Source: an uncultured Pseudomonadales bacterium
Lineage (GTDB): Bacteria > Pseudomonadota > Gammaproteobacteria > Pseudomonadales > Azotimanducaceae
NCBI GenBank assembly: GCA_943846605.1
Contig: OX044361.1
Coordinates: 2,098,673 to 2,162,672 of the forward strand
Direction: 5' to 3'
Length of the DNA stretch: 64,000 nt
The notes under the pieces were generated by a model that saw only the letters and a list, made by a program, of their open reading frames with translations, did no database searches and was not told the DNA's origin. Below are positions 2,724 to 27,413 of this stretch, piece by piece (positions within the stretch are counted from its first letter, which is position 1; the number at the start of each line of letters is the position of its first letter). The translations under genes and the position numbers were made by a program.

Positions 2724-3599
2724 TCACTGATTTTGTGCGATGACTGGCGGCTTTAATTTTCGTAGGTAGAGGATAGATATCAGGATTAAGAGCATCGGCA
2801 GGGGCCACTTTAAGGCGTAGCTGACATGCTCAAAATAATATTTTTTGGTGATGAAATGTTCAACGTCTCGCCACTCTTGAAATTCTTGCCGGTATAGGTC
2901 GAGAAAAAATGATTCGTCTGTTTTTGTATACCCGGCGTTGACATACCGACTGGCGAGCGTGTCAGGGTTTTGTGCCCAGGTTGGTTTCCTGGTCATTGCG
3001 GTAACGCCAAAATCCGCGTCGAGTATGGCCTGCTCGCCGTTGTTAAATGTGGCCAAGACCACTACATGTCCAGGAAAGCTCAGTATCGTATTTTCTATGC
3101 CCTGTAGATCCAAGACTTGTGAAAGTATCATAGAGGCGTCACCGCAGATGCCGATGCCTCGCTTTAGGCTTTTTTTATAGTCCGCGAATTGGTAGCGCCG
3201 GTACTCTGGAATGGTAGAAAATTTGCCCATGAAATGTAGAAAGTAATTTTCCCAAACCGGAATCCGTTGATTGAACTGTGCAGGGTCGTATCTTTCCCAA
3301 TGGATATGCGCCAGACCATCGTCGATGACCTGTGTGACTCGCATCGCATAAGCCCGGTCTGTTTCGTTCTGTTTCCGTGTCAGATCGGTCATTGTTTGTT
3401 GGTAATTTGTAGGTTGATCACCGTAAAAACGCAGTTCACTGTTAAAAAAGTGATTCACCCGCATGTTCTGAAACAGGCCATAGATATTGATTGCCAGCAA
3501 TGTCGCGCCAATGCAAAAGGTGAGTTGAATTAGCCTTTTTTTTAGCTTAGACAAAGGTATCACCGGACGCGCTTTTGATGAGCGCGACCTCTGCCGCAA
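2724..3599 (-). CDS. Membrane-anchored protein with transglutaminase-like (Cys-His-Asp) domain
   Basis: N- and C-terminal hydrophobic helices. GICGDASMILSQVL...FPGHVVV...ILDADFG gives a C-H-D triad in transglutaminase-like spacing. Lies 8 bp downstream of the large heme-protein gene. Confidence 0.7.
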   Translation of the reverse strand: MRQRSRSSKARPVIPLSKLKKRLIQLTFCIGATLLAINIYGLFQNMRVNHFFNSELRFYGDQPTNYQQTMTDLTRKQNETDRAYAMRVTQVIDDGLAHIHWERYDPAQFNQRIPVWENYFLHFMGKFSTIPEYRRYQFADYKKSLKRGIGICGDASMILSQVLDLQGIENTILSFPGHVVVLATFNNGEQAILDADFGVTAMTRKPTWAQNPDTLASRYVNAGYTKTDESFFLDLYRQEFQEWRDVEHFITKKYYFEHVSYALKWPLPMLLILISILYLRKLKPPVIAQNQ

Positions 3600-3607
3600 A
3601 GTATAGC

Positions 3608-6600
3608 TTACTGGTCATGCGCAACTGAGAAGGTGCGCGTGACGCGGTTGATATTACCCTGATGGTCTTTGATTGAAATCGAAAGGGTGCCGGTGAATCC
3701 CTCTGCAAGGGGTTCTAGCAAAGGGTAAACGTAGACACCATCATTTGCGGAGCTGAATAAATAGTTCAAGTTTTCTCCTGCTGGGTAACCATCGATTTCG
3801 AAATCAGCTGTAACGGACAGAGAATTGATGTCGATGCCTGAGTATGCATCAGCGAAGCCAATAATAAGTTTTTCAACCGGTTTTTGATTTTGACCCTCTC
3901 TAGGTGCTGAGACGGTCAATACTGGACGTAGGTCGTCGGCAAACCAGCCATAACCTTGTTTTGTTTCGCCGCGGCTCTGATCGATGGCACATCCCAGATC
4001 AATCCAACGGGCAAAAGTCATTTTTTCTTCAGTTGTCAGTGGGGCGTAACCTTCACCGGGAATCGGCATGATGCTGCCTACCAGATCAAGGTCAGCGTCG
4101 TTGATACGAGCGCCGGGCGGTAAGGTATTGGCATCACCAAGGACTGCCGCACTGGGATGGCTGCTATTGTCCCAGCCGTCGGTCCGCTGCCCCCATAATT
4201 TCCACATGAGCAGGCTGCGTCGGCTTTGAAATTTTCTGACATAGCGGCTTGCATTGGTTTGACGCCAGCTCCCAACTAAAGGGGGGATGCCCCAAGTCGC
4301 TTTAGGATCGTTACATAGCCTTGCATAATCGCCAGGTAATCCGTCGTAATTGTTCAGATCGTCAAGTACCAGATCTGCAGGCGGTGTGTCATTTGTTGTC
4401 GTATGGCAACCGACACATTTGCTTTCTAACACAGGCCGGATGTCTTTGAAGAATTCGACGTCTACGGCGGTGACATCAGTTTCTTTGATGATTGGATGAC
4501 CGTTGGTGTCCTGACTCACCAGAGGTGTTTTTTGTGTGAGGTCCCAAACCGCATAATCGGGGCTGGCAGCGGCAGTGGTTTGGAAATCGAGTGATTGCTG
4601 GCTGTGTGAATGACAGCCGCCACAGGTTCTCAGTTCACCGGGTCGCACCTGATGCCAAGTTTGAGATGCATTGAGCACGGCACCGTTTTTATCAATGGTC
4701 TGGAAGGTAAATGGTGCATCGGCAGGGATTTTTGCCAGGAAACTGGTGTCGGGGTTGCCCTCGAGGTCCATAACAGCCGAGCCGTCTGAGTTATATTTAC
4801 GCAGGGGTATTTCACCCAGAATCCGCAGCCGTTCGTTGGCATGATTGTGGAACCATACACCACCTTCGGGGTTAGAATTAGGGCCATAACCGCGATCTGG
4901 GTTGGGCTCCATGAGCAAAATTCGCAGTGCCCAAATATCGCTGTTGTCGTAGAGACCAGCGTCAGCACCTTGACTGATCCAATTCGTGCTTTGATGATTC
5001 TCGCTGGAATTAAATGCGTCTAAGCCATCCCAATTTTCACCGATTGAGTTAGGCGCGCTGCCTCGTTTGTACAAAGTGCTGGCACCAATAAGGCCATAAG
5101 GGGTGCCCTCAGGCAACATTGGGTGTTCGCGACCATCGTTGGGAAGCCAAGGGAGTTCTTTGGGTTCGGGTATGCCGTGGATAGACTCATAGGGTACAAC
5201 AGCGCGGGGCCAAGCCTCGTTGAAGTTGGGGTCATTTTTGATGAGGATGAGTTTGCTCATATCATCCACGGGCTCTCCGCCTGCCATTATATAGATGCCG
5301 GAGTCGACGGCGGGCCAGGGGGTAGGTCGGTTGAGTTTGTTGACTGGACCATCGGACCAGGCGACCAGTAAGTCATTATTGGGTGCTGCTGACGGATGTG
5401 TGTACTTGCCATAACCGTCGATTGCTGCATTGTCGTTTGAGGTTGACAGTGGAGTGATTGAAGATAACCCTTTGGGAGTAAAAGGCATTCGCATAGTCCC
5501 TTGATCATTATGCTTTATTTCAGGGTTTTTAGTGATGTCAGGGCTATGGAAGGCCGGTTGGTTCGAATCTGTGTGTTGAGGAATGCGGTATAGAGAGCCG
5601 AAGCCAAAGTTATTCAGGTTGTAGTAGTTCTCGACTACCACGCTTCGGTCAGACAACTGTGTTGTGAAGTGAAAAACTTTGGGTTGGTCAAAGGCACTGG
5701 CTACGGGTTCCCAGTAACGGCCGTCGGGCCATATGGACCAAACGCCCCACAGGCGATGATCGCGTAACCCTTGGCTTTCGTAGCTGCTAAACATGATTCT
5801 GCCATCTGCCAAAGGGGTCGGGTGTAGCGCAGAACTGTTGGTCATGGGAGCTATTGGCGTGACATTTTTGGTGTCTAAATCCATCACGAAGAGTTGCATG
5901 GTGGGGTAAGAAAACCCTTTGGTCGGGCGAAACCCGTTGCGATTGCTGGTGAACACTAATTTGTTTCCGGCAATAGGCGCAGGTGCTGTATTTAAAATGC
6001 CATAGCCCATTCGGTTGGCACCAGTGGCTGGGTCCACGGGGTTGCTTTCATCCCATTGGCCGGTTCCGGTGTTGGGGGTGAATTCCTGAAAGGTCAGTTG
6101 TTCAATTTGTCGCGTGGTGAGATGCAGACGGTAAATATCTGAGCCTCGCTTGGGTAAATTGCCGCGTTGATAATTGAGGTTTTCTTCGCGTAAATCGTAG
6201 AAATGGCTGTAGTAGACCCACTGCCCATCAAAAGAAATGAACGGGTCGGTGATTGCGCCGTGCTCAGTATCAATTAAGACCTCTTCGGAGCCATCGGGAT
6301 GCAGCAGCATGAGATCAGAGTTGACTGCAAGCTTTGCCGGATTAACCCCTGCCCATTTGATATGCGCATGATCACCAGCACGTGGTTTTCTAACGTAGAC
6401 GATATCATAGTCGACGGGCGCTGCTTCATCCCTGATTTGATCGCCAATGCTAATGACGTCAATGGGGTTTATTGCAGCTTGAACGGTCACGGTAATGCTC
6501 GATTGACTTTCTCCGCCGGCGCCCGAGCAGCGCAGAGTAAATTGAGTGTCGCCGGATAGGGTGTCGGAGCGAAAGCTTCCCTGTAAGGGTTGAGGACCAT

Positions 6601-7843
6601 TGAAACCGCCATCTGTACTTGATGCATAGCATTGCTGGGCATCTGTGCTGTCCCAATTCAACTGCGCATTCGAGTTGGCCTCTAGGTGCGCAGATACTGT
6701 TTCCAGGCGAATAGTAGGCTGGCGCTTGTTTTCAGGAAGGTTGGCGCTTTGGTTGATCTCCTCATCGGAAAGGCTGTTGCCTTGAGCGATGTCTTTGGCG
6801 ATGTTTTCGATAGTGTTTTTTACTTGGACGTCGAAGGTCCGGTCTGCGACTTCCCGAACAGAGTCAGGTTCGGTGCCTTCCAAAGAGCCCATGACATGGG
6901 TGAGCGTTGAATCGGGATGAATATTCTCGACAAGTGCTATTGCTTTTAGCAGTCCAGTGATGCTCCGGTCGCTCACAGGCACGTCGCGAACATCAATTGA
7001 GGCTGCTTCTGGCAAGATTGACGTGATTGCGGCATTCATTGCCGAGGTGGCCGTAAAGCCGTCAACCTGCAGGCGGCCCGCGAGCACTTCCAAGCGAATC
7101 CCTATCTCGACGGTTTTGGTTACCGCGAGAAGTCTGGGATCACTGGTTTTGCTGATATCGTATGGTTGGGGGTTTGCTGTTGTGTCAGCAAAGTTGCAGG
7201 CCATCGCGTTAATGGTTTCATCCATTGTTTTTTCTGGATATTGTGCGTCGACGCGGCGGATCCATTCTGCCGACGCTTCGTTAGACAAGGTGGCGGTAGC
7301 GGCGTTGCTTGGGTCAATTGTGCTGCGCAGAGGGTGATAGGATTGAGTAGGGTCTAGTCCAATATCGAGATTTTCCTCCACACTGGACCATAACGCATTG
7401 AGATGTCCTTCGGTTTCGTTGTTAGCGCATTTTGCTGCCTTGGCAACGAGTGTGGATATTGGGGACAGGTTGGCTGTCTGATCGCCTGATCTGGCAACCA
7501 AGGTTGTCATCTCGAAGTCGGCTGCACGATTAGTGACCAAGTCTGTTCCGCCGGAGGCCGTTATGCTGATCGGGAGCGGAGTGTTTTCCGGCAATTCGAT
7601 TGAATAGCTGGCAGATTGGTCGCTAGTACCTTGGGCTATCAGGATTCCGTTTGCGTCAAAAACCCGAATGTCAGCGCCGACAACGGGGCCATCAAACACT
7701 CGGCCTGAAAGCCGAAACTCGGCTATTTTTTGGACCGGCTCAGAGGCGATTGGCGCTGGAGAAGGGCTTGAACTGCCGCCACCTGAGCAGCCGCTCAATA
7801 AAAATAAAGAACCCATGACATTCGTGAGCAAATTGTTTTTCAT
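3608..7843 (-). CDS. Large lipoprotein: beta-sandwich/Ig-like stalk + beta-propeller + HzsA-like middle domain + cytochrome c domain (two CxxCH) + C-terminal Ig-like domain
   Basis: Lipobox LSGC after ATG 7843 (track starts at GTG 7852). PD40-like repeats (DPFISFDGQWVYYS, LVFTSNR, PTPLADGRIMFS). KIPADAPFTFQTIDKNG..QTWHQVRPGELRTCGGCH matches the hydrazine synthase alpha middle-domain pattern. FFKDIRPVLESKCVGCH...EEKMTFARWIDLG resembles planctomycete-type cytochrome c. Confidence 0.8.
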   Translation of the reverse strand: MKNNLLTNVMGSLFLLSGCSGGGSSSPSPAPIASEPVQKIAEFRLSGRVFDGPVVGADIRVFDANGILIAQGTSDQSASYSIELPENTPLPISITASGGTDLVTNRAADFEMTTLVARSGDQTANLSPISTLVAKAAKCANNETEGHLNALWSSVEENLDIGLDPTQSYHPLRSTIDPSNAATATLSNEASAEWIRRVDAQYPEKTMDETINAMACNFADTTANPQPYDISKTSDPRLLAVTKTVEIGIRLEVLAGRLQVDGFTATSAMNAAITSILPEAASIDVRDVPVSDRSITGLLKAIALVENIHPDSTLTHVMGSLEGTEPDSVREVADRTFDVQVKNTIENIAKDIAQGNSLSDEEINQSANLPENKRQPTIRLETVSAHLEANSNAQLNWDSTDAQQCYASSTDGGFNGPQPLQGSFRSDTLSGDTQFTLRCSGAGGESQSSITVTVQAAINPIDVISIGDQIRDEAAPVDYDIVYVRKPRAGDHAHIKWAGVNPAKLAVNSDLMLLHPDGSEEVLIDTEHGAITDPFISFDGQWVYYSHFYDLREENLNYQRGNLPKRGSDIYRLHLTTRQIEQLTFQEFTPNTGTGQWDESNPVDPATGANRMGYGILNTAPAPIAGNKLVFTSNRNGFRPTKGFSYPTMQLFVMDLDTKNVTPIAPMTNSSALHPTPLADGRIMFSSYESQGLRDHRLWGVWSIWPDGRYWEPVASAFDQPKVFHFTTQLSDRSVVVENYYNLNNFGFGSLYRIPQHTDSNQPAFHSPDITKNPEIKHNDQGTMRMPFTPKGLSSITPLSTSNDNAAIDGYGKYTHPSAAPNNDLLVAWSDGPVNKLNRPTPWPAVDSGIYIMAGGEPVDDMSKLILIKNDPNFNEAWPRAVVPYESIHGIPEPKELPWLPNDGREHPMLPEGTPYGLIGASTLYKRGSAPNSIGENWDGLDAFNSSENHQSTNWISQGADAGLYDNSDIWALRILLMEPNPDRGYGPNSNPEGGVWFHNHANERLRILGEIPLRKYNSDGSAVMDLEGNPDTSFLAKIPADAPFTFQTIDKNGAVLNASQTWHQVRPGELRTCGGCHSHSQQSLDFQTTAAASPDYAVWDLTQKTPLVSQDTNGHPIIKETDVTAVDVEFFKDIRPVLESKCVGCHTTTNDTPPADLVLDDLNNYDGLPGDYARLCNDPKATWGIPPLVGSWRQTNASRYVRKFQSRRSLLMWKLWGQRTDGWDNSSHPSAAVLGDANTLPPGARINDADLDLVGSIMPIPGEGYAPLTTEEKMTFARWIDLGCAIDQSRGETKQGYGWFADDLRPVLTVSAPREGQNQKPVEKLIIGFADAYSGIDINSLSVTADFEIDGYPAGENLNYLFSSANDGVYVYPLLEPLAEGFTGTLSISIKDHQGNINRVTRTFSVAHDQ
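3789..6382. repeat. Direct repeat copy A (~2.6 kb), near-identical to 8281-10874
   Basis: Constant offset of 4492 bp; shadow ORFs recur with that offset (4078/8570, 4630/9122, 5020/9512). Six substitutions spotted by eye: 3796, 3820, 4961, 5817, 5835, 5914. Confidence 0.95.
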
Positions 7844-8051
7844 CACCAACACTTTCCCGATAATTAGGCGGATATTTCGCGTAAATTCGAAAGAAAGTTT
7901 ACGGTTCTGCGCCTGGGATCATGTGATCTGCAGCACAGTTTGTTCGAGAAATGTAAATGTGTGAGGTAGTTCTAAAAAGCAGGCTTATTGGCGCGGGCTA
8001 ACGCTTCCAGATTGGGGGCATTGCATGCGTGTAAGTTCGCCTTAAAACGCT

Positions 8052-10943
8052 TTACCGCGGCGAACCTGTTGAGGGGCTCTCATAACCTGCTGAGGATAAA
8101 AAGGCTTTTTTTTCGATGCTAAAGGGCCGGCTGACACGATTAATGTTGCCTTGAAGATCTCTGACCGATACAGACAGTGTGCCCCGTAAATTGTCGGCCA
8201 ACGGTGTTTCCAGTTGATATTGATAAATGCCATCGGCGATTGATTGAAAGCGATCTTTCAAATTTTGACCCGCGTGTATGCCATCGACTTCGAAATCAGC
8301 TGTAACGGACAAAGAATTGATGTCGATGCCTGAGTATGCATCAGCGAAGCCAATAATAAGTTTTTCAACCGGTTTTTGATTTTGACCCTCTCTAGGTGCT
8401 GAGACGGTCAATACTGGACGTAGGTCGTCGGCAAACCAGCCATAACCTTGTTTTGTTTCGCCGCGGCTCTGATCGATGGCACATCCCAGATCAATCCAAC
8501 GGGCAAAAGTCATTTTTTCTTCAGTTGTCAGTGGGGCGTAACCTTCACCGGGAATCGGCATGATGCTGCCTACCAGATCAAGGTCAGCGTCGTTGATACG
8601 AGCGCCGGGCGGTAAGGTATTGGCATCACCAAGGACTGCCGCACTGGGATGGCTGCTATTGTCCCAGCCGTCGGTCCGCTGCCCCCATAATTTCCACATG
8701 AGCAGGCTGCGTCGGCTTTGAAATTTTCTGACATAGCGGCTTGCATTGGTTTGACGCCAGCTCCCAACTAAAGGGGGGATGCCCCAAGTCGCTTTAGGAT
8801 CGTTACATAGCCTTGCATAATCGCCAGGTAATCCGTCGTAATTGTTCAGATCGTCAAGTACCAGATCTGCAGGCGGTGTGTCATTTGTTGTCGTATGGCA
8901 ACCGACACATTTGCTTTCTAACACAGGCCGGATGTCTTTGAAGAATTCGACGTCTACGGCGGTGACATCAGTTTCTTTGATGATTGGATGACCGTTGGTG
9001 TCCTGACTCACCAGAGGTGTTTTTTGTGTGAGGTCCCAAACCGCATAATCGGGGCTGGCAGCGGCAGTGGTTTGGAAATCGAGTGATTGCTGGCTGTGTG
9101 AATGACAGCCGCCACAGGTTCTCAGTTCACCGGGTCGCACCTGATGCCAAGTTTGAGATGCATTGAGCACGGCACCGTTTTTATCAATGGTCTGGAAGGT
9201 AAATGGTGCATCGGCAGGGATTTTTGCCAGGAAACTGGTGTCGGGGTTGCCCTCGAGGTCCATAACAGCCGAGCCGTCTGAGTTATATTTACGCAGGGGT
9301 ATTTCACCCAGAATCCGCAGCCGTTCGTTGGCATGATTGTGGAACCATACACCACCTTCGGGGTTAGAATTAGGGCCATAACCGCGATCTGGGTTGGGCT
9401 CCATGAGCAAAATTCGCAGTGCCCAAATATCGCTGTTGTCGTAGAGACCAGCATCAGCACCTTGACTGATCCAATTCGTGCTTTGATGATTCTCGCTGGA
9501 ATTAAATGCGTCTAAGCCATCCCAATTTTCACCGATTGAGTTAGGCGCGCTGCCTCGTTTGTACAAAGTGCTGGCACCAATAAGGCCATAAGGGGTGCCC
9601 TCAGGCAACATTGGGTGTTCGCGACCATCGTTGGGAAGCCAAGGGAGTTCTTTGGGTTCGGGTATGCCGTGGATAGACTCATAGGGTACAACAGCGCGGG
9701 GCCAAGCCTCGTTGAAGTTGGGGTCATTTTTGATGAGGATGAGTTTGCTCATATCATCCACGGGCTCTCCGCCTGCCATTATATAGATGCCGGAGTCGAC
9801 GGCGGGCCAGGGGGTAGGTCGGTTGAGTTTGTTGACTGGACCATCGGACCAGGCGACCAGTAAGTCATTATTGGGTGCTGCTGACGGATGTGTGTACTTG
9901 CCATAACCGTCGATTGCTGCATTGTCGTTTGAGGTTGACAGTGGAGTGATTGAAGATAACCCTTTGGGAGTAAAAGGCATTCGCATAGTCCCTTGATCAT
10001 TATGCTTTATTTCAGGGTTTTTAGTGATGTCAGGGCTATGGAAGGCCGGTTGGTTCGAATCTGTGTGTTGAGGAATGCGGTATAGAGAGCCGAAGCCAAA
10101 GTTATTCAGGTTGTAGTAGTTCTCGACTACCACGCTTCGGTCAGACAACTGTGTTGTGAAGTGAAAAACTTTGGGTTGGTCAAAGGCACTGGCTACGGGT
10201 TCCCAGTAACGGCCGTCGGGCCATATGGACCAAACGCCCCACAGGCGATGATCGCGTAACCCTTGGCTTTCGTAGCTGCTAAACATGATTCTGCCATCTG
10301 CCAAAGGGATCGGGTGTAGCGCAGAATTGTTGGTCATGGGAGCTATTGGCGTGACATTTTTGGTGTCTAAATCCATCACGAAGAGTTGCATGGTGGGGTA
10401 AGAAAGCCCTTTGGTCGGGCGAAACCCGTTGCGATTGCTGGTGAACACTAATTTGTTTCCGGCAATAGGCGCAGGTGCTGTATTTAAAATGCCATAGCCC
10501 ATTCGGTTGGCACCAGTGGCTGGGTCCACGGGGTTGCTTTCATCCCATTGGCCGGTTCCGGTGTTGGGGGTGAATTCCTGAAAGGTCAGTTGTTCAATTT
10601 GTCGCGTGGTGAGATGCAGACGGTAAATATCTGAGCCTCGCTTGGGTAAATTGCCGCGTTGATAATTGAGGTTTTCTTCGCGTAAATCGTAGAAATGGCT
10701 GTAGTAGACCCACTGCCCATCAAAAGAAATGAACGGGTCGGTGATTGCGCCGTGCTCAGTATCAATTAAGACCTCTTCGGAGCCATCGGGATGCAGCAGC
10801 ATGAGATCAGAGTTGACTGCAAGCTTTGCCGGATTAACCCCTGCCCATTTGATATGCGCATGATCACCAGCACGCGGTTGATTGACGTAGATGATGTCGT
10901 AGTTGACGGATGCAAAAGTAGCTGTGCCGGGAAGGCCGCTCAT
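8052..10943 (-). CDS. Second HzsA-like di-heme beta-propeller protein (short form, no stalk); true start probably upstream of ATG 10943
   Basis: Same core as 3608..7843 including CGGCH and CVGCH, with diverged N- and C-termini. The frame stays open upstream to a stop at 11052-11054 and encodes a signal-peptide-like segment. Confidence 0.85.
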   Translation of the reverse strand: MSGLPGTATFASVNYDIIYVNQPRAGDHAHIKWAGVNPAKLAVNSDLMLLHPDGSEEVLIDTEHGAITDPFISFDGQWVYYSHFYDLREENLNYQRGNLPKRGSDIYRLHLTTRQIEQLTFQEFTPNTGTGQWDESNPVDPATGANRMGYGILNTAPAPIAGNKLVFTSNRNGFRPTKGLSYPTMQLFVMDLDTKNVTPIAPMTNNSALHPIPLADGRIMFSSYESQGLRDHRLWGVWSIWPDGRYWEPVASAFDQPKVFHFTTQLSDRSVVVENYYNLNNFGFGSLYRIPQHTDSNQPAFHSPDITKNPEIKHNDQGTMRMPFTPKGLSSITPLSTSNDNAAIDGYGKYTHPSAAPNNDLLVAWSDGPVNKLNRPTPWPAVDSGIYIMAGGEPVDDMSKLILIKNDPNFNEAWPRAVVPYESIHGIPEPKELPWLPNDGREHPMLPEGTPYGLIGASTLYKRGSAPNSIGENWDGLDAFNSSENHQSTNWISQGADAGLYDNSDIWALRILLMEPNPDRGYGPNSNPEGGVWFHNHANERLRILGEIPLRKYNSDGSAVMDLEGNPDTSFLAKIPADAPFTFQTIDKNGAVLNASQTWHQVRPGELRTCGGCHSHSQQSLDFQTTAAASPDYAVWDLTQKTPLVSQDTNGHPIIKETDVTAVDVEFFKDIRPVLESKCVGCHTTTNDTPPADLVLDDLNNYDGLPGDYARLCNDPKATWGIPPLVGSWRQTNASRYVRKFQSRRSLLMWKLWGQRTDGWDNSSHPSAAVLGDANTLPPGARINDADLDLVGSIMPIPGEGYAPLTTEEKMTFARWIDLGCAIDQSRGETKQGYGWFADDLRPVLTVSAPREGQNQKPVEKLIIGFADAYSGIDINSLSVTADFEVDGIHAGQNLKDRFQSIADGIYQYQLETPLADNLRGTLSVSVRDLQGNINRVSRPFSIEKKAFLSSAGYESPSTGSPR
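8281..10874. repeat. Direct repeat copy B (~2.6 kb), near-identical to 3789-6382
   Basis: Begins ccatcgac.. at 8281 versus ccatcgat.. at 3789; identity breaks after ..atcaccagcacg at 10874/6382. Confidence 0.95.
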
Positions 10944-11213
10944 GGCGATAAGGATCAGAAGGCGGATCCTGTCAAAGATAATCTTACGACCGGTCGCACA
11001 AAGACAGCTGCTGTTGGATTTGATGAAGGAAATACCTAAGTTTTGTTGATTTTAGGGTGTCAAAGGGTTCTTCGAAGGATGCAATTTGAATGCCAAAGGA
11101 GATAAATATCAACAGATCAATAGGTTACGAATATAGGTTTATCTTGGGGGGAGGTAAGTGTAAAAAATCATGACAATCGGATGTGTTTTCACCCGGCACT
11201 ACGTCAATAAATT

Positions 11214-12590
11214 TTACAGTGTTTTTGGCCCCTTTTTGAGGCTGTACAGCGGCAGCTGAGCAATACGCGCATCGATATTTGCGCGTGCGGTTGAGTACAG
11301 GCTGCTGTCTAGATTGCCGTAGTTTTGGGCAAATTGTGCCGCGCTTAATCCTTCGGGTAAGTCGTTGATATCCGGGAAAAAAAATGCCGGATCACGCAGC
11401 GCCTGTGCATGCTGCTGGATCCTTTCTGCGCTTTTTGGGTCGAGTGCCATATCCGTGAATTTCAGTCCTGCGCGGTCTGCGGCAAGGTCTGCGAAACTAA
11501 ATCCGCTGCCACCTTTTCCGGCGTCTGCTAACTCTTTTAACTCGCCGATGGCGAAACTCGTTGCCGTGTTTGTGATGAGTTGAACTGCCGCTGAAACAAT
11601 AAAATGTTGGCGTAAATCTTTGCGGCCCAGCACGGTGACCGCATCTCCCACAGGGCGGCAGTCTTTGCGAGATTGCGCGACATCACCGATCAGTGTTTCG
11701 AAGAGGTCACTGCCGAGCAAGATAGATAGGGACAACAGCGCTAATTTATTTTCGGTGGCTGGTTTTTGGCTCAGTTCAGTGCGATATCGGGCGTAGCTAA
11801 ATGCCCAGGCGAGGTAATCGCCAAGTTGGGCATCGGGTGCGGCTTTGCCCTGGTCGCAAATATGTGCAAAGTAGTCGTGTACGCTGTCGGGATCGCTCAG
11901 CAACTGGAACTGATCGCGCATTGCAAAAGCGCGTGTTCTGAGCCCACCGGCTTGATTAACCAGATCGCCGAGGGGCCCGTAATTAATTTGGATCGCGCCG
12001 GGCAATATGTCTACGTGGTGAACAGCGGCAAATAGCTGATCACCAAGTTTTTTGTCCAGTGTTTGGTTCACCAACCAGCGTGCCGATGCGATCAACCATT
12101 GGCCGCGCAGGCTGATTTCGCCCACGCTCAAGGTATCAAATATGAGCTTTCTATCCTCAGCTATCAACGTCAGCGTGAGGTTGATGTATCGGCCTAGTGG
12201 ATTTTCTGGTATCCGTGCGGTGGCGTTTAGGGTCAACTTGCCGTTGTTGATCTCAACTTGTCCCGCGAATGCGACAACATCACTGATTGTTCGTTGCGCA
12301 AAGGCCACGATAGTATTGGCCGCGTTTTCTGTGATTGTTGTGGCGACCAAGTGGTGTTCCGCGCGCGCGATGTCTTTGATGATTGTTCGCATGAGCCGGT
12401 TGGCGGCCGCTGCCTCGTTGCCGGTTAATGGTTTTGATAACGTTATCAGAGGCTGGTTGCTGCTGATTGTGCTCAGGAGCGTGATTACGATGACCATGGC
12501 CATTATCACCACGTAGACAGTGCGTCTCAGTACGCGCAATGGCCAAGCATCTTTGGGCTTAGGGATAATGTTTGCATTGACAGAGGTCAT
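11214..12590 (-). CDS. Uncharacterised membrane-anchored protein with C-terminal YfiM/DUF2279-like motif
   Basis: N-terminal TM helix. C-terminal QHFIVSAA...GELKELAD..GGSGFSFADLAADRAG resembles the QHF..SA / KE..D / GSG.S..DLA.D.AG pattern I recall for YfiM. Confidence 0.6.
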   Translation of the reverse strand: MTSVNANIIPKPKDAWPLRVLRRTVYVVIMAMVIVITLLSTISSNQPLITLSKPLTGNEAAAANRLMRTIIKDIARAEHHLVATTITENAANTIVAFAQRTISDVVAFAGQVEINNGKLTLNATARIPENPLGRYINLTLTLIAEDRKLIFDTLSVGEISLRGQWLIASARWLVNQTLDKKLGDQLFAAVHHVDILPGAIQINYGPLGDLVNQAGGLRTRAFAMRDQFQLLSDPDSVHDYFAHICDQGKAAPDAQLGDYLAWAFSYARYRTELSQKPATENKLALLSLSILLGSDLFETLIGDVAQSRKDCRPVGDAVTVLGRKDLRQHFIVSAAVQLITNTATSFAIGELKELADAGKGGSGFSFADLAADRAGLKFTDMALDPKSAERIQQHAQALRDPAFFFPDINDLPEGLSAAQFAQNYGNLDSSLYSTARANIDARIAQLPLYSLKKGPKTL

Positions 12591-13632: not shown

Positions 13633-14733
13633 TCAAGTCAGCAGATCTTGATAGAGCTCGCTGTACTCATGCGCCATTCGTTGAGCTGAAAAGTGCTCAA
13701 CAATAAACTGTCGGCCGGATTTTGCCAGTTGCTCAGAAAGGGCTTTGTCGAGGAGTAATTGCTCCCAGCAGTCGGCCAGTGCCGCCTGATCACCGTAAGT
13801 AGCCAGCAGCCCCGTTGTGTTGTGGGTCACCAATTGGTCTATGCCAGGGATATCATAGGCAGCGACGGGGATTTGCATGGCCATCGCTTCCATGAGACAG
13901 CGCGGTATGCCTTCAAGTTTTGATGTCATCACAAATAGGTCAAATGTCTTGAGCCAGTTCAGTCTGTTTTCCCGAAAACCAAGAAATGTGATGGCCTCTG
14001 CTGCCGCGGAAGCTTGAGCGTAGGCCTGCATTTCTTCGAGCTGATCTCCGTCACCCAGTAGCACTAACTCGAGGTTGTGATGTTTCGCGGCCAGGGTGTT
14101 GAAAATATCGATGATATCCACCAGGTTTTTGCGCTGGGTGATCTGGCCGATGAAGCCGATGCGTTGTTTATGCATCGGTTTTTCGCTTTCATCGGCGGCA
14201 GTAACTATCAGTTGGTCCACTTCGTCGATGTCGACGCCGTTTTGAATATAATCTACTTTGTCCTGGCGGACGCCAAGGTCTTGCATATCTCTGCACAGCT
14301 GTCGTGACAGCGGAACAACTCGGTCAAACCACTTCAGGAACTTGTTGCCGATAGTGAAGTACAGCTTCAGCTTCCAATCATTAAGTCCCACAAAACCGTG
14401 GGGGGTAGATATCGCCTTGATTCCGCACAAGCGTGCGGCAAGCAAGCCGATGATGTCTGATTTGTAGCCGTGAGTGTGGATGATGTCGATCTGTTGTGAC
14501 CGGATCAACTTTGCAAGCTGCAAAATCATTCGCAGGTCAAAACGACCTCCAACCTTAATTTGGTGGACCGTTTTCCCCAATGCCGAGTATTCACGCGCGA
14601 GTTCTACATGTCCGTTATCTGCTTCTAACGTAATCGCAAGATCGCAGGGCATCATTGGATCGTTCATATTCTTGCCCAACGCGAGTATCCAGCGTTCTGC
14701 ACCGTAAAAGCCGCTTGGGCAGGTAAACTGCAA
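13633..14733 (-). CDS. Glycosyltransferase family 4 (GT-B, retaining); start codon uncertain
   Basis: GFYGAERW, IIHTHGYK, HGF, IQNGVD and the EGIPRCLMEAMA (Ex7E) motif. TTG 14733 falls inside the first beta-strand (LKILQF). Confidence 0.9.
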   Translation of the reverse strand: MQFTCPSGFYGAERWILALGKNMNDPMMPCDLAITLEADNGHVELAREYSALGKTVHQIKVGGRFDLRMILQLAKLIRSQQIDIIHTHGYKSDIIGLLAARLCGIKAISTPHGFVGLNDWKLKLYFTIGNKFLKWFDRVVPLSRQLCRDMQDLGVRQDKVDYIQNGVDIDEVDQLIVTAADESEKPMHKQRIGFIGQITQRKNLVDIIDIFNTLAAKHHNLELVLLGDGDQLEEMQAYAQASAAAEAITFLGFRENRLNWLKTFDLFVMTSKLEGIPRCLMEAMAMQIPVAAYDIPGIDQLVTHNTTGLLATYGDQAALADCWEQLLLDKALSEQLAKSGRQFIVEHFSAQRMAHEYSELYQDLLT

Positions 14734-14903
14734 AATTTTTAAAGTTTGTGGCGCGATTTTTTCTTCCTCGAATAATCATTGGATTGTCGTTGTGCCGTGC
14801 AGCATAAAACGGCGGTAAAAGGTGTCAACTAAAGATGCGAAATGGTCCCAAATGCGGCACTGGACTGACGGTCCTGCTGGATCAGTTTGTATGACATGCT
14901 GGG

Positions 14904-15674
14904 TCAGGTTCTAACCACGCTAGACATACCGTTGTCCACAACAAATTCGGCCGCGTTAATGTGTTTGGCCTCATCACTGGCCAGAAAGGCAACCATATGA
15001 GCGACGTCGTTAGGTTCGCCGATGCCTAATTGCAGGCGCAGCGCTTCGGGATCTTGCGCTGCCTCGAAGTCGATGCCGGCGCTATGGGCAAGGGCGGCGT
15101 GCACCATGGGTGTGCTGATGCTGCCTGGATAGATTGAGTTGCAACGTATGTTGTAGCCTTTGGCCAGGCAATGCGCTGCGATAGATTTGGTCATGCTGCG
15201 GATGGCACCCTTTGCCGCTGCGTAGGCGATATAATCGGCATAGCCCTGTAATGCCACAACAGAGGACATGTTAATGATCGATCCGCCCTGCTGGTCTTTT
15301 TTCATCAACTGAACTGCCCGCTGGCAGCCGAAAAATGTGCCGTTTAAATGGATGTTGAGTGTCTGGCTCCACTGTTGGGTGGTTGTACTTTCGATATTGG
15401 CGATGACGGCGATGCCTGCGTTATTGACCAAGACATCAAGTCTGTCGTAACGGGCGTTGATGTGGGACATCAACTCATCCCAACTGTCTTCGTCGCTCAC
15501 ATCCTGATGTCGGTAATCTGCTCCGATGTCTTTGGCTACCGCCTCGCCGCGCTCGTCGTTGATGTCAGTCATGACAACACGAGCGCCTCGTTCGGTCAGG
15601 ATTCGTGCGTCGGCTTCGCCGAGTCCTTGGGCGGCCCCGGTAATAACAACCACTTTTCCGTCGAGATTTCCCAC
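14904..15674 (-). CDS. Classical SDR oxidoreductase (hydroxysteroid/cyclic alcohol dehydrogenase-like)
   Basis: TGAAQGLG, NNAG, NMSS, YAAAK, CNSIYPG. Confidence 0.93.
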   Translation of the reverse strand: MGNLDGKVVVITGAAQGLGEADARILTERGARVVMTDINDERGEAVAKDIGADYRHQDVSDEDSWDELMSHINARYDRLDVLVNNAGIAVIANIESTTTQQWSQTLNIHLNGTFFGCQRAVQLMKKDQQGGSIINMSSVVALQGYADYIAYAAAKGAIRSMTKSIAAHCLAKGYNIRCNSIYPGSISTPMVHAALAHSAGIDFEAAQDPEALRLQLGIGEPNDVAHMVAFLASDEAKHINAAEFVVDNGMSSVVRT

Positions 15675-15878
15675 AGAGATGCTTCCTTTTTCAAACGTTA
15701 AACCGCGAATGGTAGCATGATAAATTGGCGGGCATGGCGGTACCCAAAAATTTTAACTGGGCGTGACCGGCCAATGGCTTGGGCTGCGAGTGCCGATCCG
15801 TTTTGCTCGATCCAGTGCTTGTCCGGGCGTATCAAAGCCTGCACTATGAGCACTTAAATGCAGCATCGGGTGTAGTGA

Positions 15879-16817
15879 ATGAAGGCAGTTGGATTGATGG
15901 TACATGGTGGTCCCGAGGTGCTTCATATTATCGATGTGCCACCGGTGAGTGCAGGTCCTGGGCAGGTCCGAATTCGCATTCATGCGGCGGCTGTCAACCC
16001 GACAGATATTGTTGCGCGAAATGGTATGCGAGCTGAGTTTCAGCGCCAAAAGCCGCCGCCCTATGTGCCAGGCATGGATGCCGCGGGTGTTGTAGATCAA
16101 GTGGGCGCAGAGGTTACGACTGGGATTAAGGTGGGTGATCCAGTGATGGCCATGGTTGTGCCCAGTGGCATCCACGGGGCCTATCGGGAACAGATTGTTT
16201 TGGATCAGAACGCGGTGGTGCCCGCGCCGGCGGGTTGTACTCATGTTGAAGCCTGTACGCTGCCAATGAATGCGCTCACGGCAAGGATGTCTTTAGATTT
16301 GCTGGGTCTTCAATCTGGCCAAGTACTTGCGGTTACCGGTGGTCCGGGCGCATATGGCGGTTACGTGATTCAATTGGCCAAGGCAGCAGGGTTGCAGGTT
16401 ATCGCCGATGCAGCGGATTCTGATCGCGACTTGTTGGTAGCGCTGGGGGCAGACGTTATTGTCAGTCGAGGCGAGCGGTTTGCTGAAAAAATACGAGAAC
16501 ATTTCCCTTTGGGTGTTGATGGCCTTGCTGACGGTGCCCTGCTCAATGGCTTGGCAATTGATGCGGTTAAAGACGGCGGGCATTTCACGGCAATTCGTGG
16601 TTTTAAGGGGGGAGATGTCAGGGGTATTCATTTTACGGCGACGTGGGTTACCGGTTATGACGGCGCTTATGCAAAGTTAGACCGTTTGAGAGAGCAGGTT
16701 GAATGCGGTCAATTGACATTGCGAGTGGCGCAAGCTGTCGCACCTGAAGAGGCGAGTTATGCGCACCGGCAGCTTGAGGCTGGCGGCACGAGAGGGCGTA
16801 TGGTGATCAAATTTTGA
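15879..16817 (+). CDS. MDR family NADP-dependent oxidoreductase (quinone reductase-like, Zn-free)
   Basis: GGPEVL, AAVNPTD, PGMDAAG, TGGPGAYGGY, GRMVI; no Zn-ligand cysteines. Confidence 0.9.
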   Translation: MKAVGLMVHGGPEVLHIIDVPPVSAGPGQVRIRIHAAAVNPTDIVARNGMRAEFQRQKPPPYVPGMDAAGVVDQVGAEVTTGIKVGDPVMAMVVPSGIHGAYREQIVLDQNAVVPAPAGCTHVEACTLPMNALTARMSLDLLGLQSGQVLAVTGGPGAYGGYVIQLAKAAGLQVIADAADSDRDLLVALGADVIVSRGERFAEKIREHFPLGVDGLADGALLNGLAIDAVKDGGHFTAIRGFKGGDVRGIHFTATWVTGYDGAYAKLDRLREQVECGQLTLRVAQAVAPEEASYAHRQLEAGGTRGRMVIKF

Positions 16818-24872: not shown

Positions 24873-26720
24873 TCAACGATCGGTCGGTGGTGCAAACACC
24901 AGTAATGCATTTCCGGCCATTCGGTCGCCGAATAAGTAGCCGGAGTTGATTAGCACGTGCCCTCGGTAAATCACCGGGCCGTCGGACTCGATGCTGCCGC
25001 CTGCGGCGGTCTCCCCCGAGACAGAAGCGAACTCGGCATTGGTATTAAAGTCCCATAAAATCTCGCCGTTGCTGCTGTCATAGGCGCGCAGGTGTCCGTC
25101 AAAGGCACCGGCAAATACGACGCCAGGTATCGCCGTGGCGGCTGCCGATAAACCCGGATCACAGGCGGGTCGATCGTTCGGCTCACACACCTCTGGCGCG
25201 GGCGTATACCACATGATTTTTCCGTCGACGGCGCTCAACGCGTATAGTCCGGGCGAGCGTGGTCCCTTAAAGCGCCCTGTAAACGTGGTGTCTGCATTGG
25301 GTGCAAAGATGGTGGTGCCCTGTGCAGCGAGGCCCCAGTGAATGCCTCCAGCAAATCCGCCGCGACCGATTTTTTTGCGCCAGATGAGTTCACCATTGTC
25401 TGGATTTAAGGCAAAAACGTGCCCAGATTTTTGACCAGCGATCACCCGGTCTTGGCCATCGACCGATACCAATATTGGGGGTGCGCCAATATCTAGATCA
25501 GGACCGTCCTCCTCGGGACAATTGGCCCCGCCACCGATGAAACAGGCCATATTCCAGGCATCTCCGCTGAGCGACTGGTAGTGCCAGACGATCTTGCCGG
25601 TGGTCAGATCAATGGCCAGAACTGAATCGCTTGTATCGGCAGCTGGGGATGTATACGCCTCGCCGGTGCCAACGTAAAGCTGGTTGCGTTTGGGGTCTAT
25701 CGTTGGGGAATTCCATATTGGAGCGCCTGCGGGATGAAATAGGGGGCTGCCGGCTTCATTATTTCGACCGGTCGCGGCAGGGGTTTGGGGGATGGCATAG
25801 GTGGTCCATAATTTTTCGCCATTGGCGGCGTCAAAGGCGACTACGCCACCCCGAAAAGTACAACAACTATATCCGGGATCAGCGGCACTGCCCCATTCTG
25901 TGGAAGATAGCGGTACATAGAGTTTGTCTTGGTGAAGTGTGGGTGATCCAGTTAACGTTGTGTCAGGGTGAGCGTCTGCTCGAGCGCGCCAGATTTCTGT
26001 GCCGTTTGATGGATCGATCGCGTAAACGGTGCCTCGAATGTCACCAAAATAAGCGCGCGTGCCTGTCTCGTTGATAGCAAGTGCGCTGCGTACTTCTGCA
26101 TCAGCGCTATAAGTCCAATGTGTGCAGCCGTCCTCTAAATTGAGGGCATAAACCGTGCCATCTTGGCTGCCAACCAGCAGTGCGTTGCCGAAGGGCGAGG
26201 GTTGACTGCGCGCGCGCGTGGCACCTGGGTAGGCAAAAACCCATTTAAGCTGAAGGTCACCCAGAACATTTTTACTCAGTTGGGCCACATCAGCCGGTAT
26301 GAAGCGCGTGCCTTGCTTGGACAGGCTCCAGCCTGCTGTGACCGGCTTGACTGCGGGTATTTCGGTCGCCTCACAGCGTTTGACGGGTATACGAGCGATG
26401 CTTTCTCCCCCCAAATAAGCAGCCAGAGTTTTGATCTCGTTGCGGGTTAGGTCTGATGCATAGGTCGCCATGACGCCCTCGTTTAGGGCAGATTCAATGG
26501 CTTTTGCGCCAATGAGTTGAAATTTGATTTGGTGAGGTGCTTTGGCAACGCTGCCGTCGTGACAATGCGCGCAGCGATTGTTGAATGTTGCTTGCGCATC
26601 AAAGGTTGCGGCTGGAGTTTCTGTTGAATTGGCGGATGAAATAGGGTTTTGTCCAGCGCTCAAGTCTGCCACTGAACACAAGGCCGCGATGGCAACGGCG
26701 GTTAGGTTAAAAATTTTCAT
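24873..26720 (-). CDS. Quinohemoprotein PQQ-dependent dehydrogenase with N-terminal cytochrome c (polyvinyl-alcohol dehydrogenase-like)
   Basis: Signal peptide from ATG 26720, CAHCH heme site, vicinal SCCTFRG, APIWNSP, GPDLDIG, AGQKSG, and Trp-docking PQQ repeats. Confidence 0.9.
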   Translation of the reverse strand: MKIFNLTAVAIAALCSVADLSAGQNPISSANSTETPAATFDAQATFNNRCAHCHDGSVAKAPHQIKFQLIGAKAIESALNEGVMATYASDLTRNEIKTLAAYLGGESIARIPVKRCEATEIPAVKPVTAGWSLSKQGTRFIPADVAQLSKNVLGDLQLKWVFAYPGATRARSQPSPFGNALLVGSQDGTVYALNLEDGCTHWTYSADAEVRSALAINETGTRAYFGDIRGTVYAIDPSNGTEIWRARADAHPDTTLTGSPTLHQDKLYVPLSSTEWGSAADPGYSCCTFRGGVVAFDAANGEKLWTTYAIPQTPAATGRNNEAGSPLFHPAGAPIWNSPTIDPKRNQLYVGTGEAYTSPAADTSDSVLAIDLTTGKIVWHYQSLSGDAWNMACFIGGGANCPEEDGPDLDIGAPPILVSVDGQDRVIAGQKSGHVFALNPDNGELIWRKKIGRGGFAGGIHWGLAAQGTTIFAPNADTTFTGRFKGPRSPGLYALSAVDGKIMWYTPAPEVCEPNDRPACDPGLSAAATAIPGVVFAGAFDGHLRAYDSSNGEILWDFNTNAEFASVSGETAAGGSIESDGPVIYRGHVLINSGYLFGDRMAGNALLVFAPPTDR

Positions 26721-26887
26721 TGTGTAGGCTCTTCGGGTTAGTGGCTCTTCAAGGGAACGATTAGGCACACGAGGTGTAAAGGTAACGCGGTTGGGCTTTG
26801 GTTCTCAAGCGAGTTTGTCAGCTTGACGCTTATTGCAATTCATTTTCCTTTCGAGCAACCTGACTAAAAATATCGTCGGAGAGGGGT

Positions 26888-27379
26888 ATGCGTATTGGTT
26901 TTTTGGGCATTTGGCTGCTGGCTTCAGTCAGTGCCGGTTCTGTTTGCGCTGAGCAGCAACCGGGCACGCATGATGAGGTTGCAAAAATAGAAGGTCTCTA
27001 TGCCACTTGGCGTGATGCCGTGGAGAAAGGTGACAGACAGGCCTACGTTAGTCTGCTGCACCCGCAAGTGCGGATGCTGCCTCCGGGTGCACCGGCGATT
27101 GACACTGCGGATAGCTATAGCGAATTTTTGCGTCCTGTTTTTGCGATGGCGACCTACACGATAGAAGTTGATCAGGCGCCAGAGGTAGAGGTGATGGGTG
27201 ATGTTGCCGTGGCTCAGTATGACTATACCATCAGCCTAAACCTTAAAAACCCGTCTGTTGGCGTTTCTGAGCCTGGCGCTCTGACCGCGTCGCAGACCTC
27301 AGCACGCTATTTTGATGTGTTGCGTAAGACTGATACCGGTCAATGGCTGGTCTGGCGGCATGGCTGGCAGGTTTGGTAA
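26888..27379 (+). CDS. Exported NTF2-like / SnoaL-like (DUF4440) protein
   Basis: Signal peptide, W..AVEKGD..AY, MLPPGAP, EVMGDVAV, VLRKTDTGQWLV. Confidence 0.8.
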   Translation: MRIGFLGIWLLASVSAGSVCAEQQPGTHDEVAKIEGLYATWRDAVEKGDRQAYVSLLHPQVRMLPPGAPAIDTADSYSEFLRPVFAMATYTIEVDQAPEVEVMGDVAVAQYDYTISLNLKNPSVGVSEPGALTASQTSARYFDVLRKTDTGQWLVWRHGWQVW

Positions 27380-27413
27380 CGATGGCTGTATAGGGTTGCG
27401 AAGGAGCGTGGTG

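Follow-up and report, generated by a model that had tools for sequence, protein, structure and literature searches.

Hydrazine synthase is biochemically unique, and its evolutionary origin is debated. What, then, are two proteins with the architecture of its alpha subunit, HzsA, in an uncultured Pseudomonadales bacterium that respires oxygen? The genes in question lie side by side in a 64,000-nucleotide stretch of DNA (the window; contig OX044361.1 of assembly GCA_943846605.1, positions 2,098,673 to 2,162,672 of the forward strand). An initial annotation, made from the sequence alone, saw in them a pair of exported di-heme proteins and a candidate undescribed redox system. With a probability of roughly 0.7, we read both as HzsA-related proteins that are not hydrazine synthases. 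The two genes are as follows.

3608..7852, minus strand: long HzsA-related gene, 1414 amino acids (aa) from GTG 7852, taken from the open reading frame (ORF) list and translation.
8052..10943, minus strand: short HzsA-related gene, 963 aa from its first ATG.

The genes are arranged head to tail, and their minus-strand ORFs carry what had been described for them: a propeller, the segment IPADAPFTFQTIDKNG...QTWHQVRPGELRTCGGCH (aa 575-614 of the short and 1042-1081 of the long protein), a second heme site within FFKDIRPVLESKCVGCH (aa 667-683 and 1134-1150) and a terminal immunoglobulin (Ig)-like domain. Gene callers start the long gene at ATG 7843, giving a 1411-aa protein that is found on 42 public contigs, while the identical 963-aa short protein is present on 17 contigs and allelic 963-aa variants on more than 40. 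The outer boundary of the pair had been placed at 10990, which overshoots ATG 10943; the frame stays open there, and its translation resembles a signal peptide. BLASTP aligns the two proteins without gaps over 933 aa at 96% identity. Six independently assembled metagenome contigs of 33-579 kb contain the same two genes in tandem, which rules out an assembly artefact; the gene order on all six is a 458-aa gene, the short gene, the long gene and a downstream gene called as 246 aa (a 291-aa ORF in the window). The complete host genome is 3.56 Mb in size, and these two genes are its only matches to the HZS_alpha family PF18582. A scan for promoters and terminators was uninformative, with counts no higher than in shuffled sequence.

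Both proteins are full-architecture HzsA homologues, as had been proposed. The Pfam HZS_alpha profile is matched at 55.4 bits by the long and 57.0 bits by the short form (gathering score 26.6), although only in its C-terminal half (positions 49-97 of 98), and PD40 reaches 19-20 bits, slightly below its cut-off of 20.9. The domains of the shared part are placed as follows.

5072..6409, minus strand: PD40/TolB-like beta-propeller of the long form (PD40 19 bits), the same as that of the short form.
4610..4756, minus strand: HZS_alpha middle-domain match of the long form (Pfam, aa 1033-1081), with heme site 1 at its end.
9102..9248, minus strand: HZS_alpha match of the short form (Pfam, aa 566-614, 57 bits).
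3623..3922, minus strand: C-terminal Ig-like beta-sandwich of the long form, placed from the AlphaFold2 strands at short-form aa 844-943; the converted tract described below does not cover its last ~63 codons.

The short form was modelled with AlphaFold2 from 28 family sequences, with a mean predicted local distance difference test score (pLDDT) of 83 and a predicted template modelling score of 0.86. In the model, aa 16-457 are all-beta, with ~24 strands counted as six four-stranded blades, and are followed by a mixed middle and C-terminal region bearing both CxxCH sites and by a confident beta-sandwich at aa 844-943. A Foldseek search of the PDB with this model places chain A of hydrazine synthase, 5c2v_A, at the top (E 3e-28, template modelling score 0.51 by query and 0.62 by target, 971 columns). 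It is the sole match over the whole length; TolB comes next (E 2e-10) and, like the other propellers, covers the N-terminal part only. Sequence searches of the PDB also match 5c2v_A alone (E 3e-8 with a single sequence in phmmer, 3e-17 with a family profile), and the sequence alignments to it are colinear in all three domains, with aligned pieces in the propeller, at each of the heme sites and in the final helix.

The four heme sites were located from the translations and, for the second site, from the alignment to HzsA.

4610-4624, minus strand: heme site 1 of the long form, CGGCH, with the invariant His at +2.
4403..4417, minus strand: heme site 2 of the long form, CVGCH, in the C-terminal cytochrome c domain, aligned to the heme alpha-II site of HzsA.
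9102-9116, minus strand: heme site 1 of the short form, CGGCH, within the HZS_alpha match.
8895..8909, minus strand: heme site 2 of the short form, CVGCH, from the translation and the alignment to 5c2v_A.

Judged by its sequence, neither gene encodes a hydrazine synthase, because the scores against the HzsA equivalog model are near 50 bits where 800 are required, the tyrosine ligand of heme alpha-I is replaced by glutamine, and there is no hzsB or hzsC nearby. The scores against NF052339, the NCBIfam HzsA equivalog, are 49.9 and 51.1 bits (curated cut-off 800). In HzsA, the His587 of the CxxCH motif binds a zinc shared with Cys303, and Tyr591 is the proximal ligand of heme alpha-I (PMC12607021, PMC12758564). 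The ungapped alignment of CSGCHYGSY with CGGCHSHSQ puts Gln618 at the position of Tyr591; residue numbers here and below are those of the short form, and conservation is counted over 28 family members. In that column the family has Gln in 22, Lys in 3, Arg in 2, Ser in 1 and Tyr in none. As the initial annotation had stated for the vicinity, no hzsB or hzsC relatives are found among the neighbouring genes of the window, and genome-wide the matches are sub-threshold only (hydrazine_beta at best 41.7 bits against a cut-off of 560, hydrazine_gamma at best 21.7 against 625). Both of these weak matches are to one protein, ~680 kb from the window.

G000:C1:2844375-2847689 of the host genome (L110:8376-11693), plus strand: 1105-aa YVTN-type propeller protein, with CASCH at 518 and CGDCH at 679.

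Its layout is beta-gamma-like, and it also weakly matches CCP_MauG models. As a hidden beta-gamma partner it was rejected: congeners that have no HzsA-like pair also encode it, and of the five other carrier genomes four have no match to it and the fifth has weak partial matches. No match to PF13447, of the HAO/HDH multi-heme type, was found in the genome, although the controls of that search were silent too, which makes this weak evidence. The host does encode a heme-copper oxidase, in keeping with the aerobic lifestyle first supposed for it.

Set beside HzsA of Kuenenia stuttgartiensis (5C2V/5C2W chain A), the window proteins have the same order of PD40-type propeller, heme-1 middle domain and class-I cytochrome c domain, both CxxCH sites align, and the core around heme 1, W-x-x-x-R-P-x-x-x-R-x-C-x-G-C-H, is common to the two. 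However, identity is only 16%, Gln stands for Tyr591, and an invariant His is found two residues after the CxxCH motif. Heme alpha-II of HzsA is bis-His-ligated (distal His772), whereas heme 2 of the window proteins is probably His/Met-ligated, judging from its motif. HzsA works with HzsB and HzsC in anammox; the window proteins are without such partners in an oxygen-respiring heterotroph, and they have an added C-terminal Ig-like domain and, in the long copy, an N-terminal lipoprotein module.

Non-anammox clusters of hydrazine synthase homologues have been described as clades I-IV, with the verdict "homologous, not anammox" and the observation that the homologues lack key residues (Hagglund et al. 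2025, PMC12758564). Like the window proteins, these are alpha-like, with a heme alpha-I site, and are without Tyr591; they also lack Cys303. They are, however, defined by a co-located fused beta-gamma homologue, usually together with a CRTAC1 FG-GAP gene, and neither of these is found among the window neighbours or among the frequent families of the 120 immediate neighbours in the 80 related loci described below. The published alignment also shows a two-residue gap at Tyr591, whereas the window proteins align ungapped, with Gln. The same verdict extends to the window proteins. Divergent HzsA-like genes have elsewhere been taken as "anammox potential" in ten phyla (PMC11828985). The present locus is a clean case for the opposite side, that of PMC12758564: a complete genome of an aerobic marine gammaproteobacterium, two HzsA homologues, no beta or gamma subunit above threshold and no Tyr591. 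Matches to PF18582, or HzsA-like matches in general, are thus unfit as anammox markers.

The family itself is large and, contrary to the first impression of this locus, not undescribed. UniRef and NCBI name some of its members "HzsA-related protein", and it is discussed in both PMC12758564 and PMC11828985. Proteins named in this way by UniRef, or after the hydrazine synthase alpha subunit domain, are 59-66% identical to the window proteins, with 97-98% of the query aligned. A word-indexed search returned more than 2826 relatives, and phmmer over 1.84 billion cluster representatives gave 455 matches at E<=1e-30 and 2387 at E<=1e-3. The top 120 relatives, apart from the window's own long form (96%), are 55-66% identical over 96-100% of the query and come from Gammaproteobacteria, Thermoanaerobaculia, Caldilineae/Anaerolineae, Binatia and metagenome-assembled genomes (MAGs) of deltaproteobacterial type. 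Between Gammaproteobacteria, Acidobacteriota, Chloroflexota, Binatia and Myxococcota, identity amounts to 57-66%; copies from Planctomycetota are 43-50% identical. In every relative inspected a Sec signal directly precedes the mature (V)DYDIVYV start, and many carry add-on domains of extracellular type (dockerin, FN3, PKD, CARDB, TSP3, LamG). Cultured Gammaproteobacteria have orthologues in Oleiphilus messinensis (OLMES_2021), Saccharobesus litoralis (C2869_18720), Hahella sp. CCB-MM4 (BTA51_10355) and Algibacillus agarilyticus. These are 59-66% identical over the core, with the same invariant residues and with Sec signals. They are single-copy with C-terminal add-ons, whereas the two window genes stand in tandem and share a homogenised core, the long one having an N-terminal module and the short one a signal peptide lacking a canonical start codon. 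In the family tree the two window copies are sisters within a supported gammaproteobacterial clade that also holds Oleiphilus, Algibacillus, Hahella and two MAGs.

Genomic context was compared in a scan of one genome per species, which gave 80 related loci with neighbours taken from 10-kb flanks. All-against-all BLAST clustering of 985 ORFs revealed no conserved neighbour, the best non-self cluster being present in 8 of ~80 loci. A Pfam tally of the 120 immediate neighbours gave 153 families, of which the most frequent, DUF1501, occurs in 6, all from Planctomycetota or Verrucomicrobiota. With no conserved neighbour in 80 loci, the family gene appears to stand alone. Among the related loci, 77 have a copy that could be scored, and at 72 of these it is the only one. 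The proposal of a paired enzyme or heterodimer is therefore not upheld, given this predominance of single copies, the lack of a conserved partner gene and the 99.8% identity of the two cores through conversion. Two or three adjacent copies are found elsewhere, in two Gemmataceae MAGs (L076, L077) and an Alcanivoracaceae MAG (L025). These have diverged anciently, so that core homogenisation is a trait of the window's species and not of the family.

Several congeners of the host carry a different HZS_alpha-type protein of ~900-940 aa (loci L099-L106, for example G001:C1:2396044-2396208), which matches the window proteins around heme site 1 only (aa 566-619, 36-44% identity). The host genome, G000, is without this type, and the two HzsA-like subfamilies were never found in one genome among those searched.

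Across the family, invariant residues are found around the hemes and in the propeller. C610-G-G-C-H614-x-H616 is invariant in 28/28 members, as are W599, H600, R603, E606, R608 and H616 around heme 1 and C679, C682 and H683 of heme site 2. Dozens of polar residues are invariant in the propeller, among them H210, H261, Y276, Y277, N278, E225, R171, R218 and R230. In the heme 2 domain, M795 (25/28) is the Met of a motif of the form ...IMPPP...PLS..E....WIDLG, and there is no conserved His in the loop before the (P)L(T/S)xxE...WIDLG helix. Heme 2 is probably His/Met-ligated rather than bis-His, an assignment guided by the resemblance of the motif to that of the PSCyt1 family. The cytochrome c maturation genes ccmC, ccmE and ccmF, a search for which had been suggested, are present in the host genome.

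The most likely working model is a self-contained oxidoreductase. Both proteins would be exported through Sec and matured by Ccm, with two c-type hemes. Heme 1 (CGGCH-x-H) would be His-ligated and not Tyr-ligated and, by analogy with heme alpha-I, would form the reaction centre beneath the propeller, which would carry over it a ring of invariant His, Tyr, Arg and Glu residues. Its substrate may be small, diffusible and common, because the family is spread over marine, soil and freshwater aerobes. Heme 2, with its CxxCH and the Met of the IMPPP motif, would swap electrons with general periplasmic carriers, in which case no partner gene would be needed. The long copy would be a lipoprotein held on a ~450-aa surface-protein module, the two copies differing at their targeting ends. 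A functional analogy, and only that, can be drawn with di-heme cytochrome c peroxidase, likewise a stand-alone exported enzyme with an electron-transfer heme, a catalytic heme and general periplasmic donors; it is unrelated in sequence and fold, and PF03150 gave no match in the window proteins. The division into a catalytic heme 1 and a relay heme 2 may be put at even odds, and for any named substrate the chances would be slim at best.

Several points weigh against this model. Catalysis is read from conservation, and PSCyt1 (PF07635) was undetected in the C-terminal domain by Pfam at E<=0.1. Heme 1 could be six-coordinate through the invariant His600 and His616, and so an electron carrier and not a catalyst. 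In hydrazine synthase, heme alpha-II is reported to lie beyond efficient electron-transfer distance of the other hemes (PMC12607021); if that geometry is kept here, the step from heme 2 to heme 1 fails. Finally, the short copy may not be expressed at all.

The relationship between the two copies was resolved at the DNA level, where they align ungapped over 2629 bp.

3789..6417, minus strand: gene-conversion tract in the long copy, partner 8281-10909.
8281..10909, minus strand: gene-conversion tract in the short copy, partner 3789-6417.

The alignment (long 6417..3789, short 10909..8281) has 15 mismatches, 9 of them in the first 35 bp and 2 in the last 33. The 2.6-kb core is 99.8% identical between copies: codons 23-880 of the short form show 6 differences in 2574 nucleotides and a synonymous divergence (dS) of 0.005. 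The final 63 codons of the alignment, by contrast, differ at 80 of 189 nucleotides, with dS saturated and a nonsynonymous divergence (dN) of 0.27-0.38. The core is 100% identical between copies in most strains compared. One strain (L114) has two single-nucleotide polymorphisms, at core positions 346 and 1456, that are present in both its copies, and in another (L115) the identical tract reaches further into the tail, tract ends varying by strain. Polymorphisms common to both copies and shifting tract ends point to ongoing conversion. The pair thus consists of old paralogues whose core is homogenised by ongoing gene conversion.

In public assemblies, two 947-aa proteins (P0123 and P0133, on contigs of 5.4 and 11.2 kb) join the N-terminus of the short copy to the tail of the long one. 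These chimeras are either deletion recombinants between the 2.6-kb direct repeats or repeat-collapse artefacts. No orthologues of the pair, the 458-aa gene or the 291-aa gene were found in 18 genomes of the same genus, and the ~10-kb block made up of the 458-aa gene, the short gene, the long gene and the 291-aa gene looks species-specific. The block may have been acquired by this species, which would fit its absence from the 18 congeners.

Outside the converted core, the copies differ most at their N-termini.

7787..7852, minus strand: predicted lipoprotein signal peptide of the long form, translation ...SLFLLSGCSGGGSSSPSPAP, with lipobox L-S-G-C, Cys22 and Ser at +2, followed by a Gly/Ser/Pro linker.
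6443..7786, minus strand: N-terminal ~450-aa module of the long form, a beta-sandwich, a ~11-helix domain and an Ig/PKD-like beta-sandwich (AlphaFold2 pLDDT 83).
10944..11051, minus strand: signal-peptide-like open frame of the short copy, ...KIIFDRIRLLILIA(M)SGLPGTATFA/SVNYD, with no in-frame ATG, GTG or TTG.

The lipobox of the long form, LFLLSG/C (LLSGC), and the module that follows agree with its description as lipid-anchored on a long stalk. AlphaFold2 models the linker as disordered, and the protein is predicted to be lipidated and surface-exposed. The same ~450-aa module also opens surface-type proteins with Ig repeats and a terminal FN3 domain, without HZS_alpha, in marine Pseudomonadales MAGs (26-39% identity). 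In a Foldseek search of the PDB its helical domain was unmatched, Ig/PKD-like beta-sandwiches being the only matches. The other form had been called short and soluble; it is short, but its soluble export is uncertain. Read codon by codon, the frame upstream of ATG 10943 stays open to a stop at 11052-11054 and encodes a basic n-region followed by a hydrophobic core and a cleavage site, T-F-A, so that the first ATG falls in the middle of the signal peptide. A candidate start is ATT 10980-10982, and some bacterial genes do begin with ATT or ATC. Going by this reading frame, the short copy may either have an ATT/ATC-type start, with weak translation, or be silent. It also has a private tail, with EKKAFLSSAGYESPSTGSPR and a diverged Ig domain, which is under constraint and therefore suggests function at least until recently.

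Three further features were noted, two beside the pair and one elsewhere in the host genome.

2724..3599, minus strand: 291-aa membrane-anchored transglutaminase-like protein, with two transmembrane segments, 9 bp downstream of the long gene.
11214..12590, minus strand: 458-aa protein, encoded upstream of the short gene and likewise beside the pair in six other strains; it has a hydrophobic helix at its N-terminus and no Pfam match.
G000:C1 ~520.3-522.7, 523.8-526.3 and 530.2-532.6 kb (L096:4275-6737, 7840-10302 and 14162-16624), minus strand: 820-aa exported di-heme protein in three copies that score identically.

The 291-aa gene is probably co-transcribed with the long gene. Its product has no Pfam match, and Cys152, His178 and Asp194/196 are invariant among its homologues. 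There are 251 of these, mostly from Alteromonadales, some of which UniRef names "Transglutaminase-like domain-containing protein". The gene was not found in 30 relatives, and has one paralogue in its own genome; a supposed relation to the genes flanking the Oleiphilus orthologue was rejected. The 820-aa proteins match CCP_MauG at 73 bits, with MbnH as the nearest NCBIfam model and CxxCH at aa 117 and 461. They were considered as HzsC-like candidates and rejected, being of MbnH/MauG/CCP type and 1.58 Mb away. With them, the host genome has another locus of tandemly repeated heme-protein genes besides that of the window; between the copies lie genes for two PEP-CTERM proteins and a Polysacc_synt_3 flippase, along with a 270-aa paralogue of the 291-aa gene.

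Several rival readings stand against the working model. That the pair serves as accessory redox enzymes of an exosortase/PEP-CTERM-type exopolysaccharide (EPS, biofilm matrix) system, acting on polymer or matrix proteins at the surface, is suggested by the Hahella orthologue, which is embedded in an EpsH/EpsI exosortase EPS locus that shows synteny with those in Paraglaciecola and Thalassotalea. Homologues of the 291-aa protein sit inside such EpsH/EpsI loci, its paralogue shares the PEP-CTERM and flippase locus with the three copies of the other exported di-heme protein, and the add-on domains of the family are of extracellular type. However, EPS genes were found within 10 kb in Hahella only, of the 80 related loci; an Exosortase_EpsH match is present in just one of five other carrier genomes; and near the window pair there is one EPS-locus-type gene (the 291-aa gene) and a GT4 gene, with EpsH ~620 kb off. 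We regard this role as unlikely. Less doubtful, though still less probable than not, is that the short copy is silent or barely expressed and is kept open by conversion from the long copy, leaving the lipoprotein as the one working enzyme. The signal peptide present in every relative is here without an in-frame ATG, GTG or TTG start, no Shine-Dalgarno-like sequence precedes either ATG 10943 or ATT 10982, a product begun at ATG 10943 would be signal-less and could not obtain heme via Ccm, and the core is identical to that of the long copy. The signal-like reading is nevertheless intact and identical in seven strains (the window and six others), alleles of 963 aa are intact on more than 50 contigs, and ATT/ATC starts do occur in some bacterial genes. 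The unconverted tail, moreover, has an intact Ig-like domain in which family consensus positions are kept, with dN of 0.27-0.38 against saturated dS.

Other alternatives concern the chemistry of the family as a whole. Stand-alone hydrazine-synthase-like N-N or N-O chemistry on hydroxylamine, nitric oxide or ammonium in aerobes, as PMC11828985 implies and as one of the first guesses had it, could draw on HzsA being the only structural relative and on the shared heme 1 core motif. Heme alpha-I is moreover the proposed site of NH2OH and NH3 condensation, at an oxidised heme, with no electrons needed. The guess is weakened by the replacement of the Tyr591 ligand by Gln and by the equivalog score of 50 against 800. 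The gamma subunit that supplies hydroxylamine is also lacking (and PF13447 gave nothing, with its silent controls), and PMC12758564 concludes likewise for other non-anammox homologues; such chemistry is very improbable here. It is also improbable, though less so, that the proteins are no enzymes but surface or periplasmic electron carriers or ligand binders, with a TolB-like propeller as platform and the hemes as relays or sensors. Bis-His coordination of heme 1 by the invariant His600 and His616 would suit this, PD40 propellers such as TolB are often binding modules, and no conserved partner or operon points to a pathway. On the other side, 57-60% identity over ~950 aa across phyla and dozens of invariant polar residues distributed over every blade of the propeller look more like an active site than a relay. 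A bolder extension of the oxidoreductase model has a similarly small chance. In it, heme 1 with a His cluster (H210, H261, H600, H614/H616) and Glu and Arg residues would make up the active site, with a second metal beside the heme or otherwise unusual, of a widespread unrecognised enzyme, performing N-oxide, hydroxylamine or peroxide chemistry at the surface of aerobes on the scaffold from which anammox HzsA evolved. If this were true, tethered and free isoforms kept identical by conversion would be a dosage or localisation device.

As the family is already known to be large and is named, the pair is an ordinary member with an unusual local conversion history. New here are gene conversion restricted to the core, a surface module at the N-terminus of the long copy and, in the short copy, a signal peptide without a canonical start. 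The conversion pattern is a tidy natural case of concerted evolution confined to a putative catalytic core and not new biology. A large, conserved family, predicted to be exported and heme-bearing, with members in bacteria that are cultured and tractable (Hahella, Oleiphilus, Saccharobesus, Algibacillus), is a worthwhile biochemical target.

Elsewhere in the window, two large proteins, encoded at 24873-26768 (minus strand) and 27312-29333 (plus strand), appear by eye to be pyrroloquinoline quinone (PQQ)-dehydrogenase-like propeller proteins. The first has an N-terminal CAHCH cytochrome c motif and is, again by eye, quinohemoprotein-like.

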